This document shows positions 2,703 to 20,139 of a stretch of DNA of 20,684 nt, one piece after another. This stretch comes from an uncultured archaeon (GTDB lineage: Archaea > Asgardarchaeota > Thorarchaeia > Thorarchaeales > Thorarchaeaceae). Where the stretch lies: contig CAYWJO010000053.1 of the NCBI GenBank assembly GCA_964458565.1, positions 1-20,684 on the forward strand, read 5' to 3'. Numbering within the stretch: position 1 is the stretch's first letter; every line of letters starts with the position of its first letter. A program made the translations under genes and the position numbers. The notes under the pieces are model-generated. The model had not been told where the DNA came from. It saw only the letters and a list, made by a program, of their open reading frames with translations, and ran no database searches.

Positions 2703-3533
2703 TTATTCCTTAATTATTCCTAATTTATACACACAAGCAAGATGTCGCTTACATTGAGGACAACCCCTTCGGCATTCAATCAGACTCTCAGGAATTGCAC
2801 TTGTGCTTGAACCTTTTATGTTTGTAACAAGATTGAAGATATTCTCTACGTCTGCTTCTTCGCCCTCAACGACTAAAGTCGTTGCTCCTTCAGCTCCTTC
2901 AATACCTCCTGCACCTATCACAGTCACATTTACATTAGCAAGCTCCATCAATGCTTCTCGTTCAGTTACTAATTCACCAAAAATCGGTATTAATCCAACA
3001 GCTGCACCAAATGATTTGTCAATAGTAGTACGTCCTGCTGCTAGAACAGCATCACGAATCGTGCCGGGTATTAGCTTCTCCAGTCCTGATGCAATTATAA
3101 CTTTGGACCCTTGAGTCATAAATCCTGCAACTGCTTTTCCAGGTATATGACCTAAGGGTGCCGCAGCCATCATCGCGGCATCGCCATTCTTATCAATAGC
3201 ATTCGCACTAGCTATAATGATATCATCCCTACCAAACCCTGCCACTATTTCATCGATCGTAGCATCAACATTTTCTATGTTTTTACCTTCGATTAGAATA
3301 CAGTGAGCATTATCCACCCTCCGAAGAGTATTCATTGTCCCTCTTGGAGTGATTCGTCCTCCGATTCTCAATGGATGGCCTGTCAATTCTTCTGCAATCG
3401 CGGAAACGGTAGTCCCCCCTTTAAGTAGAACCTTTCCCTTAGAGAGTGCCTTTTGGACATCGATTCGCTTACAAATGCCTAGAGCAATAATTCGTTTTGC
3501 CTCTGCAACTGTGAGAGTTATTTGTATCTTCAT
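2703..3533 (-). CDS. Conserved hypothetical protein (possible CoA-transferase/RpiA-like fold) with C-terminal CxxxCxxCx4C cluster
   Basis: LTVxExKRxIA N-terminus, KGGTT, ANAID, GLEKLIP, GAGGIxGAEG; Cys-rich tail CRRGCPQCKRHLAC; operonic position. Confidence 0.65.
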   Translation of the reverse strand: MKIQITLTVAEAKRIIALGICKRIDVQKALSKGKVLLKGGTTVSAIAEELTGHPLRIGGRITPRGTMNTLRRVDNAHCILIEGKNIENVDATIDEIVAGFGRDDIIIASANAIDKNGDAAMMAAAPLGHIPGKAVAGFMTQGSKVIIASGLEKLIPGTIRDAVLAAGRTTIDKSFGAAVGLIPIFGELVTEREALMELANVNVTVIGAGGIEGAEGATTLVVEGEEADVENIFNLVTNIKGSSTSAIPESLIECRRGCPQCKRHLACVYKLGIIKE

Positions 3534-14213: not shown

Positions 14214-14489
14214 GTAAACGATAAATTATTACATGGTAAACGTTAAGAAAATACATTTGGCGCGCTGACCTTAGTAAAGTAAACGTATTCTATAATTTCG
14301 CGCCATTCAATCAAGGCAGCTAGCTCATCATTGCTAGCTTATGTAAAATTGTGCAATAATTTTTGATTCTAATGCACATTGTGCAAATATATTTTAATTT
14401 GCAGAGCTTACTAACAAAATCATACTATCTTCATTAAACAAACGTTTACAACTAAAAACTAACGATGTTTATATATTGGTAACGTGTAC
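14214..14489. repeat. Array 1 of GTAMACG(TT) motifs
   Basis: Plus-strand copies at 14214, 14236 and 14279; minus-strand copies at 14441-14449 and 14481-14489. Confidence 0.8.
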
Positions 14490-14526
14490 TAAGTTATTTG
14501 TCTCCCGCCGGGAGGGTTGACGCAAA

Positions 14527-16070: not shown

Positions 16071-16120
16071 TTCATAATGAAATAACATCTTCATATAATT
16101 AAATAGTGGGATAGGAGTGC

Positions 16121-16370
16121 GTACACGTTCATTATTATATCCTGATGTACTGCGTTTACTCCAGAGTTCATTAGTAATCGCAAGTTTCACTAAACATAAA
16201 TAGTAAACGCGAAAAATTACAAGTAAACGTTGTACACGTTTGATTATTTGATGAATCATGGAAATGGTATAAAATAGCATCCCCAAAAAGACAAATCAAA
16301 TGTATTATCCAGATAATACATAATCAACGTTTACTATTCAACAGAAGTATACTGTAATGTTTACTACTCA
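16121..16370. repeat. Array 2 of GTAMACG(TT) motifs with a 22-bp palindrome
   Basis: Plus-strand copies at 16121, 16203, 16223 and 16232; minus-strand copies at 16151-16159 and 16326-16334; variant AATGTTTAC at 16356; palindrome at 16300-16321. Confidence 0.8.
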
Positions 16371-16452
16371 TTCATCCGCAGTATATGGGGAAAGTAGCTG
16401 TCATGAATCATGATTTGATCTACATCAAGTGACATTCGAATCCGATAATCCC

Positions 16453-16804
16453 ATCCCTCAATTTTCCTCTTTTTTTTGGAGATGACTATGTTTGAACATA
16501 TATTATTATTTCAAAAAGGGTAGCCTATTTGATCTCAATCATATCAAATGCAATTTATTCCAATGATTTGTTGTTCTCACATCAAAGAAATATTCTCTCA
16601 TTTAAATACTATAACTATAGGTTATTCTGAGTAACCCATAGTTATGAACTGCAAAATTAGCATTAAATAGTACTTGTAGCTAAATGCATTTGGGAGGTAA
16701 GTAGTATTTTCAATAACTATAATCGAAGAGATAAGGGTAGTAGTCACAAAACTAAGATTGAGGAATCGAATGGGTTTCCAAAAATAGAAGAGAAATTGAG
16801 GGAT
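16453..16804. other. Inverted-repeat-bounded 352-bp segment: candidate invertible element or recombination site with arm repeats
   Basis: ATCCCTCAATTT (16453-16464) / AAATTGAGGGAT (16793-16804), extendable to 24/30 bp; central 35-bp palindrome; 13 bp from the recombinase stop codon. Confidence 0.6.
16611..16645. other. lox-like palindrome (14-7-14), putative tyrosine recombinase core site
   Basis: ATAACTATAGGTTA-TTCTGAG-TAACCCATAGTTAT; arms match 13/14 as an inverted repeat. Confidence 0.6.
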
Positions 16805-16817
16805 AAAAAAATGAGTT

Positions 16818-17918
16818 CTATTCGAGTTCTATTATGGGACTATCACATCGAATGCAAGTTTTAGAGTTTTTACCAATAATCGAAATTGAGGGATCGTCTT
16901 CAGGGGGGTTGATAGTATCGCAATTAATACAATACCTCTGATGATATTCTGACCTACCAGGTACGAAACGTCCTTGCGCTCGTACTACATCTTCATTGTA
17001 GTCTTCATGAAAGAGTGCAAGATAGTGTTTTTCGAATGTACGAGACCTCTGGGTATGACCAAGACGCGCTCTTATTGAAGAAGTGGGTAATAGACCAGTG
17101 CGTTCCCACCATGTTGCAGCACTCTTTCTAATAGTGTAAGCATATAATGTTCTATCTTGTCTGCGACCACGGTCTCCGATATTTTGACCTAAGGCGTGAA
17201 CTGTCATACGATAACCATTTCGAGTTGGAAAGAGAGGTCCACTTTTTGTAGGGTGATTCTCATAATAAGGAATGAACCACATGTGAGCAATCCAAGTCAT
17301 GAGATCATGTTCTTGGTATTCTCCACTTTTCTCGCGTTTAACACGAACTGACCATTCTGCATTATTATGGAATATATCTTGATAGTCAATACTCACAATC
17401 TCACCTGGTCTAAACGCGGTATCCCATGCGAAAGCAAGTAATGCTTTCCATTTCTTCGATCGAGAAGCTTGTATTAACTCGACGAGATCAGTCACTGAAA
17501 GTCTTTCTTCACGACCGTCCATTTGTCTTGGTACGGTGCTTGTGCTTTTTAGCATACGTTCAATTCTCTGTGAAAAGATAGAATCATAATCAGAACTACT
17601 GCTCAGGAGTTTCTTAATCCGACTGAAGAATGAAATTGGTTGGGTAACATCACTTAGATCATCAACATCATGCACAAATCGAATCCAATGACGAAGCGTG
17701 TTTTTTACAAGATTCATGCTATTTTGAGAGTATCTATTAGAAGCAGAGTATAGAGCTTTTTGGAGGGCAGTGATGTCCACCATGGTGAGTGATTTATTGT
17801 AATCAGTATTAGCAAAAGTTGAGAGCAATTTTAATGCCTTTTGTGCACTAACGTTTGATAATCCTCTCTCAGCTCGTAGGTATATCTCAAATGCAGACCA
17901 GTCGAATTCACTTTTCAT
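16818..17918 (-). CDS. Tyrosine-type recombinase/integrase with C-terminal zinc ribbon
   Basis: XerC/D-like N-terminus (F..YL..ERGLS), TAFRPGE (R), KSG (K), YTIRK (H-x-x-R box with Y), LGH, HY nucleophile; tail CINC...CIRC. Confidence 0.92.
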   Translation of the reverse strand: MKSEFDWSAFEIYLRAERGLSNVSAQKALKLLSTFANTDYNKSLTMVDITALQKALYSASNRYSQNSMNLVKNTLRHWIRFVHDVDDLSDVTQPISFFSRIKKLLSSSSDYDSIFSQRIERMLKSTSTVPRQMDGREERLSVTDLVELIQASRSKKWKALLAFAWDTAFRPGEIVSIDYQDIFHNNAEWSVRVKREKSGEYQEHDLMTWIAHMWFIPYYENHPTKSGPLFPTRNGYRMTVHALGQNIGDRGRRQDRTLYAYTIRKSAATWWERTGLLPTSSIRARLGHTQRSRTFEKHYLALFHEDYNEDVVRAQGRFVPGRSEYHQRYCINCDTINPPEDDPSISIIGKNSKTCIRCDSPIIELE

Positions 17919-18060
17919 TAAATTGAAGATGTCACGATGATAACAAAAGTGGTAGTAATACCCTGGTACTTCCGAAATTTGAAATGAAAAGTCTATAAGA
18001 TTTCATCTTGCTGGCTACTCTAGAGAAAAACTGCTTGTGTGAGTTTGGTGGCGTGAGCTT

Positions 18061-20139
18061 GTGAAGTCTAAAGGCATTGTATTCCTAATTATCTTATCAC
18101 TCATCCAATCAACACCGGTTGGATATGCTGCAGAAATTGTAACACATAGTGACACAATAGAAGGTTCTTCATTGTCTTTCAGACAATTGGTGCCATATCC
18201 GGAATTTTCGAGTCAACCCAATATAACAAATACAGGCACTTCGAGTCAATTCTCCTATGAGTATGAAAATAATGAAGTAAGACTCATATGGTCACATGAA
18301 GCGGGAACCCGGTTAGATTTTCGTGAACAACCTGATGAAAACTTGCCTGATTGTAAGGAATTCATCTACCTGTCACAGGATATGCATTGGCCAATTGACA
18401 ACTTCCCACTTGAGCGTAAGCTCACTGTAAACTTTCAAGTGATATTTAACGGATCATTTAATGAGGAAATTGCAGGTCCACGGATGTTCACTGTATATAT
18501 GTGGTTCATTGATTCATCAGGAAATTGGGTCAAAGTCTATGAATCATTTCCGCCGTACGTTACACAAGGTGGGAGAGAAATCATTCTAAGTAACTTTGAG
18601 GTCGAAGACATATGGGAAGGAATGATAGCCGATGAAGAAGGAAATCAAGAAAATCCGACGGATGTATTTGAGCTAGCTATAGGAATAGCGCCATCACTTA
18701 ACATGGAGAGTGATCTGTATGGAAATCCGTGGGAATTCTACAACGGATCGGTGACAGTGTCTGTGCAAGGAATTAGTTTAGAAGTATTACTCGACAGTGG
18801 AGGTAATCCACAGGCTCGCACTCCATCATATTTTGGAAACATCACGTTTGGATACTATACCCTCTGCGAGGATATGACATTTGATAGTATAGGGAATGTT
18901 TACACAGTAGGCACAATCATGGATTATACTGACAGAGTCTATTGTCTTGTTCTAACTAAATGGGATTCTAACGCTCAAATTCAATGGACAAAATTATGGA
19001 ATGGAACACCGTATGCTCAGGGTCACGGTATTGCTACGAATGAGAACAATATCTACACCGTTGGTTCTGTATTTAATGAAAGTGGTAACCTGGATTTTTC
19101 CATAGTAAAATGGGATACTAATGGAAACGTTAATTGGGAAAAGACGTGGGATGGCGAGGAGTCATGGCTTGATCTGGAACCTTATTTGGAAAATCGTCTT
19201 GGACCGGACTATGAGATTCTAAATCATTCGTTTTCTGATGATAGAGGGTTAGCTATCGAAATCAATGATAATGGAGATTTACTCTCACTTGTTAAGAGTT
19301 CTTTTAATATGGATTTGTATAATGAAGAAAGTGACGCCATCCATTCATATTCAGCCGACATTCTGACACTACTCATTCATAGTCAGGACGGGAATCTTCT
19401 ACAAACTGAGATAATCGACATGAACTCATGGATATGGGATGAATATGTTGATATTCAAATATCGGATAATTACATTTACACAATAGGTTCCAATATAACG
19501 AAACTAGATAAGGAATACAACATCGAATGGTCTACCTTGGGATGGGGTGACTTTATTGTAAGAAAAGACGACGTTTTTTGTAATAGTGCAGGTTATGATA
19601 GTTGGGAGATCTATGAATTCCTTCTAGACCCTTCTTTCCCATACTTTAATAATTTTTCATGGTTCTGGCACGGAATATTGGATCTAGGTGATTCTCCATG
19701 GTTGCCTTCCTACTATAACGGACCATCTACATACCTATCAGATAACTCAATTATTTCCATGATGGAACTGTCGTACTACTATCCGGATATATATCAAACT
19801 GGCGATTCAAATTCTTATTCTCTATCAGAACTATATCTTGTGAAATTGAATGCCTCTCACCAAATAGAATGGTTAGACAGAATAGAACTGGATTATTGGC
19901 CTTCAGCTACCCTAGATCAGGGTAATGGAATTCTCAAATATCGTGAATCTACGGGACAGATTCTATTTGCAGGAACATCATATGCTGGAATTTCACTCTA
20001 CATATTTAATGATCGCTCAGTTGCACCTCCTGGATATGATTTTGGGATTGTAATTTATGGAGTATCAGCTGCTCTCATTGGTTTAGTGGCGGTTGATTAT
20101 TTGAGACGAAGAAGGAATGCGAGTTCATCGGAAATTTGA
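18061..20139 (+). CDS. Secreted, C-terminally membrane-anchored acidic cell-surface protein with beta-propeller-like repeats
   Basis: N-terminal signal peptide; repeats D..GNVYTVG...L.KWD.N....W.K.W.G; C-terminal TM helix followed by RRRR. Confidence 0.8.
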   Translation: MKSKGIVFLIILSLIQSTPVGYAAEIVTHSDTIEGSSLSFRQLVPYPEFSSQPNITNTGTSSQFSYEYENNEVRLIWSHEAGTRLDFREQPDENLPDCKEFIYLSQDMHWPIDNFPLERKLTVNFQVIFNGSFNEEIAGPRMFTVYMWFIDSSGNWVKVYESFPPYVTQGGREIILSNFEVEDIWEGMIADEEGNQENPTDVFELAIGIAPSLNMESDLYGNPWEFYNGSVTVSVQGISLEVLLDSGGNPQARTPSYFGNITFGYYTLCEDMTFDSIGNVYTVGTIMDYTDRVYCLVLTKWDSNAQIQWTKLWNGTPYAQGHGIATNENNIYTVGSVFNESGNLDFSIVKWDTNGNVNWEKTWDGEESWLDLEPYLENRLGPDYEILNHSFSDDRGLAIEINDNGDLLSLVKSSFNMDLYNEESDAIHSYSADILTLLIHSQDGNLLQTEIIDMNSWIWDEYVDIQISDNYIYTIGSNITKLDKEYNIEWSTLGWGDFIVRKDDVFCNSAGYDSWEIYEFLLDPSFPYFNNFSWFWHGILDLGDSPWLPSYYNGPSTYLSDNSIISMMELSYYYPDIYQTGDSNSYSLSELYLVKLNASHQIEWLDRIELDYWPSATLDQGNGILKYRESTGQILFAGTSYAGISLYIFNDRSVAPPGYDFGIVIYGVSAALIGLVAVDYLRRRRNASSSEI

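Follow-up and report, generated by a model that had tools for sequence, protein, structure and literature searches.

A tyrosine recombinase gene and its adjacent palindromic site: a conserved candidate recombination module in Thorarchaeota

Introduction

The locus described here raises a simple question: what does a lone tyrosine recombinase act upon when its gene ends beside a symmetric set of repeats in a Thorarchaeota chromosome? The stretch analysed, hereafter the window, is one whole 20.7-kb contig (CAYWJO010000053.1) of a genome assembly of 3.73 Mb in 93 contigs. Past the stop codon of its tyrosine recombinase gene lies a 352-bp module in which two inverted repeats, c1 and c2, flank a central palindrome, P; a third copy of the repeat, c3, is found within the gene itself. 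A preliminary description of the window had offered two accounts of the module, namely an invertible segment resembling fimS of Escherichia coli or a core-plus-arm recombination site for the adjacent recombinase. We propose that the module is the cognate site of the recombinase and that gene and site are inherited as one unit, in which P would be the core and the repeats accessory. The enzyme would act at this single site in the manner of xerS/difSL or xerA/dif, or by docking of an attP-like kind. This account, drawn from comparison of sequences, is one in which we have moderate confidence.

Anatomy of the repeat module

The module and the recombinase gene comprise the following features, given in window positions.

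16453-16480, plus strand: repeat c1, ATCCCTCAATTT followed by a T-rich run and TTGGA; the distal arm, inverted with respect to c2
16611-16645, no strand: palindrome P, of 14-7-14 structure, with arms at 16611-16624 and 16632-16645 around the spacer TTCTGAG (16625-16631); proposed crossover core
16646-16776, minus strand: spacer d, from c2 to P, homologous to the same spacer in all relatives when read in recombinase orientation
16755-16766, minus strand: degenerate fourth copy of the repeat, AGATTGAGGAAT, matching at 10 of 12 positions
16777-16804, minus strand: repeat c2, the proximal arm, 13 bp past the recombinase stop codon
16818-17918, minus strand: tyrosine recombinase of 366 amino acids, matching PF00589 with an E-value of 5.6e-11
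16883-16894, minus strand: repeat c3, within the recombinase gene, 75 nt before its stop codon

Arms c1 and c2 are 82% complementary over 28 nt, with a perfect 12-mer at their core. The repeats share the sequence TC(C/A)CTCAAT, which is separated by 6-9 nt from a T-rich run with GGA or CGA at its end, and each arm is followed towards P by an oligo-T run (T8 after c1, T5 after c2). Repeat c3, whose exact match extends to 13 nt in the output of a repeat finder (16882-16894), codes for D-P-S-I in the zinc-ribbon loop of the recombinase; it may also have a role as a DNA site, though only a putative one. The inverted repeat, the central palindrome and the in-gene third copy were all recovered by the repeat finder where the preliminary description had placed them. 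Its remark that the centre of P coincides with the midpoint of the repeats also held, the centre lying 175 bp from the start of c1 and 176 bp from the end of c2. As it had further stated, the window contains no tRNA; a scan for Rfam matches in the window was likewise negative.

The repeats and the palindrome are clearly non-random. In 300 dinucleotide-preserving shuffles of the 531-bp intergenic region, the score of the 28-nt repeat (23/28) was reached in four, and that of P, scored with 17-nt arms matching at 15 of 17 positions, was equalled in none. The strongest statistic for non-randomness is the genome-wide count of the 12-mer AAATTGAGGGAT, which occurs exactly three times in the 3.73-Mb assembly, at 16453(-), 16793(+) and 16883(+), all within 442 bp; a reversed control pattern has no copy in the assembly. 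The 381-bp segment as a whole is single-copy in the genome. This rules out a miniature inverted-repeat transposable element, which the preliminary description had named as the alternative should many copies be found.

Conservation of the gene-plus-site layout

The layout was tabulated, in the orientation of the recombinase, for 14 loci representing 14 lineages in two Thorarchaeota clades. The window and L024, the one other contig with the window's arrangement, are termed type B, and all others type A. Past the stop codon of every close homologue comes a repeat, then about 170 bp, then P, then an inverted repeat. The c2 motif lies 3-16 bp past the stop codon where nothing is inserted (48 bp in L026), and the centre of P lies 160-175 bp beyond c2, which places it 176-221 bp past the stop codon in loci free of an insert. 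Beyond P, an inverted copy of the motif was located in 11 of the 14 loci, 164-176 bp from the centre of P in the window and L024 (where the equivalent of c1 is at 3420-3431) and 222-257 bp in the others. The c3 motif, TCCCTCAAT, is found at position -75 in 12 of the 14 loci and is missing in L024 and L026. This recurrence of a similar layout downstream of homologous recombinases is the opposite of the outcome that had been named beforehand as counting against a recombinase-linked site.

In L015, L017 and L069 there is an insert between the stop codon and c2, and c2 then comes after the insert. The inserted DNA is a gene for a membrane protein of 381 amino acids in L015 and L016-L020, and other DNA in L069. 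Capture of cargo at c3 was considered as its origin and rejected: no duplicated gene end follows the 381-amino-acid insert in L015 or L016, and the C-terminus of the recombinase is native everywhere.

Gene and site also occur together. In 86 genomes from the family, P was sought with a tolerance of 3 mismatches in 29 nt. Five of these genomes have a close orthologue of the recombinase, and P is present in exactly those five, once each; an additional P in G065 lies on a 2.4-kb fragment that comes from a second strain and has an identical layout. P is unique in the window genome, so that one recombinase is matched by one site per genome, as in Xer/dif systems. Conversely, P was found nowhere in five sister-clade genomes that lack the recombinase and keep the synteny from GGR to the response regulators, in which the gap between these genes varies from 1.7 to 3.3 kb.

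The palindrome as a candidate crossover core

P is 89-95% conserved among lineages that otherwise have hardly any alignable intergenic DNA, and 22 of the 39 columns in its alignment of 14 lineages are invariant. Its spacer has the consensus TTC-N-GAG, with A, T or G as the centre base. Changes in the arms are uncompensated: of eight variable pairs, six no longer pair, and the covariation does not exceed that of shuffles. Because the arms are conserved, their changes uncompensated and the centre base variable, P is likely to consist of two half-sites recognised by protein rather than a hairpin. Selection for an RNA or cruciform hairpin was accordingly rejected, no compensatory changes being seen. 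P has the form of a dif-type site, an imperfect palindrome of about 28-31 bp with a centre of 6-11 bp. Taken with the repeats, it also has the form of a lambda-type attP, in which a core of inverted half-sites has a distinct arm-type motif on both sides. Since P carries the conserved 14-7-14 half-site signature and the repeats have no dyad core-site structure of their own, P is read as the crossover core and the repeats as accessory. Of the two accounts in the preliminary description, it is thus the core-plus-arm site that agrees with the fixed positions of P and repeats behind homologues, the one-to-one co-occurrence and the structure of the core.

In the proposed mechanism, the recombinase would bind P as two inverted 14-bp half-sites that flank a 7-bp overlap region. 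Arm-type protein-binding sites that shape the synaptic complex would be supplied by the ATCCCTCAAT-type repeats: c2 and c3 next to the gene and, beyond P at about 175 bp from its centre, the inverted c1. Recombination of P with P between sister chromosomes would then amount to dif-like resolution; alternatively, recombination of P with a partner DNA bearing P would result in integration or excision. Both the binding of P and repeats by the recombinase and the reaction it catalyses are predictions from this anatomy. Single-site recombination is the most likely reaction, rather than flipping of the 352-bp segment, because there is one P per genome and the recombinase is the sole tyrosine recombinase of the window's genome. 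No partner attB or attP was found in the window's own genome or in searches of viral contigs, and no attL/attR element borders or direct repeats were found around the single intact P of each genome. GC skew on the 20.7-kb contig tracks gene strand only and is uninformative on the position of the terminus.

The same elements could instead be operators for transcription factors, or terminators or insulators, that regulate the recombinase or its neighbours and are not substrates for recombination. The oligo-T runs after c1 and c2 are like archaeal terminators, P ends in TATA-like sequence, and elements like c occur in genomes that lack the recombinase. Such a role for the whole module is nevertheless improbable, given that P strictly co-occurs with the recombinase, that recombinase cores typically have a 14-7-14 structure whose centre base is free, and that rearrangements and contig breaks cluster on P, as described below.

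Differences at the palindrome between near-identical strains

Signs of DNA rearrangement at P are seen between strains that are nearly identical. L062 and L064, which come from two separate metagenomes, are identical to each other and differ from L063 at 16 positions in 7.1 kb (99.8% identity). Twelve of these 16 differences fall within 77 bp centred on P (L062:4246-4322), the central 33 bp of which are the exact reverse complement. L021 and L041 have four differences in 3.1 kb: three along the outer edge of the distal repeat, and one at the centre base of P, which is also where L017 and L019 differ. In L016 a deletion of 61 bp has removed P (L016:8530-8545 against L017:8530-8606); L016 is otherwise 98.9-99.7% identical to L017 and L018 and encodes an identical recombinase. 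The ends of three independent contigs fall in the same place: that of L020 exactly at the left border of the L016 deletion, that of L028 a few bases from the equivalent point, and that of L027 inside the P spacer.

Palindromes by themselves can disturb assembly and can mutate via template switching. The strain-level evidence is for this reason suggestive and not proof; as far as it goes, it suggests that action on the DNA takes place at P and not at the 12-mers.

A separate difference between L016 and L017 is a 19-bp tandem duplication (GCTCGCTCGAGGTTTTCT.) at L016:8722-8760, in a region that is otherwise identical in the two.

Orientation of the segment and of the whole unit

The neighbourhood of the locus is recognisably conserved in all the relatives. 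An EMC3-like gene (-) comes first, followed by an 89-amino-acid gene (+), in most cases a gene for a HEAT-repeat protein, and the lipid-saturation gene GGR (-). Across a gap lie two response-regulator genes (+), which precede genes for a KaiC-like ATPase and a TPR protein. Within flanks of this fixed order and strand, the recombinase is on the (-) strand and reads towards GGR in type B (the window and L024), and is on the (+) strand and reads away from GGR in all others (type A).

A fimS-like switch, the other account in the preliminary description, would make c1 and c2 the crossover sites and the 352-bp segment (16453-16804) the DNA that flips. It finds support in the perfect 12-bp inverted repeat, which is unique in the genome and lies beside a recombinase, and in an identical A-to-G variant in both arms of L024. 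The asymmetric spacer of P in the window also points the opposite way relative to the gene from that of L024 and most type A loci. Spacers d and e, by contrast, are collinear between the window and L024 (z scores of 5.4 and 4.5, with z <= 2.0 for inverted pairings), and the P core alone differs; the gene-proximal spacer d is likewise collinear with that of five type A loci (z 2.8-8.2). None of the relatives has the 352-bp segment flipped. The repeats of type A loci are unequally far from P, at about 173 and 245 bp, and have diverged into different subtypes. The absence of a dyad core from the repeats, where P has one, argues against this switch as well. Because the orientation relative to the gene is the same in relatives, a fimS-type flip of the segment is not supported, and we consider it to have little likelihood. 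Nor was a gene found that is placed to be switched by the segment. GGR starts about 370 bp to the left of c1 and about 500 bp from the TATA-like TTTAAATA, which was confirmed inside the segment at 16601-16608.

Two other inversions do emerge from the comparison of orthologous loci that the preliminary description had called for: that of the 33-bp P core between strains, noted above, and that of the gene, c2 and P, which are inverted as one unit between the two clades. The gene that flanks the block beyond P is read in the same direction as the recombinase, whichever way the block lies. The whole recombinase-plus-P block might accordingly be a cassette that is invertible or re-insertable in the manner of Hin or phiCh1 Int1, via inverted repeats outside the block. 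A flip would then switch the flank that receives transcription from the block, from GGR (as in the window) to the response-regulator/KaiC operon (as in the sister clade). EMC3, p89, GGR and RR1 indeed keep the same order and strand in both arrangements while the recombinase does not, and in four of the type A contigs (L021, L029, L030 and L041) inverted repeats flank the block, which share a 33-nt core (31/33 in L029) and extend to about 150 bp. Inversion of int1 in phiCh1, as cited in PMC8371274, is a precedent from an archaeal virus. We regard such a cassette as possible but unlikely. The orientation is fixed by clade, with no sign of frequent switching, and one ancient inversion or two independent insertions would be enough to explain the two arrangements. 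The bracketing repeats are weak or absent in the remaining type A loci, and to the right of the gene neither the window nor L024 yielded a second inverted copy. Further, the left-hand repeat is also present in genomes that lack the recombinase and may be a host regulatory element; since it exists without the recombinase, part of the repeat system would belong to the host locus.

No significant homology was detected in the DNA beyond P between the two arrangements, or between that DNA and the gap of recombinase-less genomes. Beyond P the two clades share no alignable sequence, and the inverted unit is therefore delimited only approximately. Misassembly at the palindrome was rejected as the source of the window's arrangement, as it would need two breakpoints and the independent metagenome contig L024 has the same order.

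A further short motif, TTTCAAAAAGGGTAG (window 16504-16522; L023:7364-7383; L021:7388-7399), occurs in both arrangements at a distance of about 100 bp from P. Its chromosomal strand is the same in the two, but its side of P is not. Its placement is not one that a rigid inversion of the unit would be expected to yield.

The recombinase and its evolution

The recombinase has an N-terminal helical domain, a catalytic domain and a C-terminal zinc ribbon (CxxC-x21-CxxC). Its catalytic set is intact, with R170, K197, R264 and Y299 (FEKHYL motif), and a profile scan found no other PF00589 gene in the genome. Of 24 genomes of the family that were scanned, none has a canonical XerA above the cut-off; other Asgard families do have XerA. 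An N-terminal arm-binding domain of the lambda kind was not recognised in the protein. The best match to a solved structure in a profile search was XerA of Pyrococcus abyssi, at an E-value of only 0.018. An AlphaFold model built from nine sequences reached a pLDDT (predicted local distance difference test) of 50, too poor for a structure search. Upstream of the gene lies one further conserved element.

17943-17962, minus strand: GGTATTAC-N4-ACTTTTGT, 25-44 nt upstream of the recombinase ATG, a near-invariant alignment block in both arrangements; presumed promoter or operator

Close relatives of the protein are few. About 15 homologues have 76-80% identity, all from assemblies labelled 'Candidatus Thorarchaeota archaeon', and among these the whole C-terminus is conserved. 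A search of 1.84 billion representative proteins matched three clusters at E < 1e-30 and 11 at E < 1e-10. Relatives at 41-49% identity have many small unannotated open reading frames, DNA methyltransferases and a VRR-NUC nuclease as neighbours, contexts that resemble mobile elements. No P-like module was seen beside the distant homologues P0016, P0018 and P0019, and neither the recombinase nor P was found in IMG/VR viral contigs.

Comparison of the recombinase with GGR gives the following identities.

L021 against L029: GGR 98%, recombinase 97%
Within the type A clade: GGR 65-77%, recombinase 83-89%
Window against type A: GGR 42-46%, recombinase 76-80%
Window against L024: GGR 52%, recombinase 79%

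In a tree of GGR, type A loci are monophyletic (100/100), the window and L024 form another clade, and recombinase-less genomes fall outside type A. The co-divergence of the recombinase with its host, together with its slow evolution, points to long-term selection on the gene. This bears on the explanation that the locus is a functionless, decaying remnant of an integrated mobile element, or that the repeats arose by chance. The contexts of the 41-49% relatives speak for it. We consider the explanation very improbable: the gene is intact in every lineage, better conserved than neighbouring housekeeping genes and under visible purifying selection, its sites keep conserved fixed positions, and the 12-mer statistics speak against chance.

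Comparison with known recombination systems

The closest parallel is with the Xer systems of one recombinase. In streptococci and lactococci the xerS gene and difSL lie side by side and form a module, and a xerA/dif module is known from some archaea (PMC5357621). As here, a lone recombinase gene stands beside a single imperfect palindromic site, with no second recombinase (PMC5357621). The Thorarchaeota protein differs in scoring far below the XerA threshold and in having a C-terminal zinc ribbon. Its 14-7-14 site differs in having inverted accessory repeats about 170 bp to either side, and the module is confined to two Thorarchaeota clades. Dimer resolution is a putative function in the present case.

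Lambda attP has, like P, inverted half-sites around a 7-bp overlap, with a second, unrelated motif on both sides in opposite orientations within about 250 bp. Unlike an integrated attP, the site described here is intact in the chromosome rather than split into attL and attR. E. coli fimS, acted on by FimB and FimE, resembles the module in being a segment of about 350 bp with short inverted repeats and an adjacent tyrosine recombinase gene; the Thorarchaeota module has its best core-like site at mid-segment rather than at the ends, and no flipped orientation is seen in relatives. In Salmonella Hin and in Int1 of the haloarchaeal virus phiCh1, finally, the recombinase lies between inverted repeats, as it does in some type A genomes, and the opposite orientations of the block in the two clades are also reminiscent of these systems. 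Here the orientation is fixed within each clade, and the second repeat is not found in the window. Hin is a serine recombinase.

Several points weigh against assigning the module to a single-site system of the Xer or attP kind. The best curated family for the recombinase is archaeal XerA (NF040815), but at 38.9 bits against a cut-off of 220, so that the protein falls outside the XerA equivalog. Dimer resolution is not obviously needed, because sister lineages live without any tyrosine recombinase. To our knowledge, known chromosomal dif sites need no flanking accessory repeats. The A-to-G change carried by both arms of L024 (ATCCCTCAGTTT), a single position, hints that the arms are coupled; the variant is found in one arm only in L065. 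Finally, recombinase-less genomes have at the same locus a c-like TCCCTCAAT-N7-CGATTTTTCGA element preceded by a palindrome of 12-14 bp that resembles the arms of P, TTAACTATAGTTA. This element shows that the repeat motif is not confined to genomes with the recombinase, and a host factor may be what binds it.

Other features of the locus

In the recombinase-less loci L047-L051, the gap between GGR and RR1 contains different small genes and keeps the conserved TTAACTATAGTTA...TCCCTCAAT-N7-CGATTTTTCGA; about 300 bp upstream of RR1 there are two CGA-boxes in inverted orientation. Arrays of GTAAACG / GTACACG in both orientations are found upstream of GGR, at 16100-16380 in the window (also at 14214-14490), at L024:3460-3720 and at L023:5540-5690. 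They look like transcription-factor sites of the host locus, and both arrangements have them.

On the other side of the recombinase, an open reading frame of 692 amino acids (window 18061-20139, plus strand) has no Pfam family, a hydrophobic C-terminal stretch and a weak match to a beta-propeller lipoprotein. A homologue, 49% identical, occupies the same place in L024. This neighbour is unrelated to the 381-amino-acid insert of type A loci.

Significance

Our search of the literature found no site-specific recombination system described in Asgard archaea beyond the integrases of mobile elements, and no module of the present kind described in them. The locus ties a divergent recombinase one-to-one to a defined 35-bp site with accessory repeats, a pair that has been kept under strong constraint over genus-level divergence. 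Because the predicted substrate is explicit, the system is directly testable, with resolution, integration and inversion as candidate functions. A bolder and quite unlikely reading is that of programmed rearrangement, in which the recombinase would flip its own core, or the gene-plus-site cassette between host inverted elements, or both, and so toggle read-through into GGR against that into the response-regulator/KaiC operon. If true, Asgard archaea would thereby gain their first described DNA-inversion switch. Should the recombinase prove to be a resolvase, it would be a case of a mobile-element integrase taking over the role of Xer; should the module be a switch, the known range of phase variation would come to include the archaeal lineage closest to eukaryotes.

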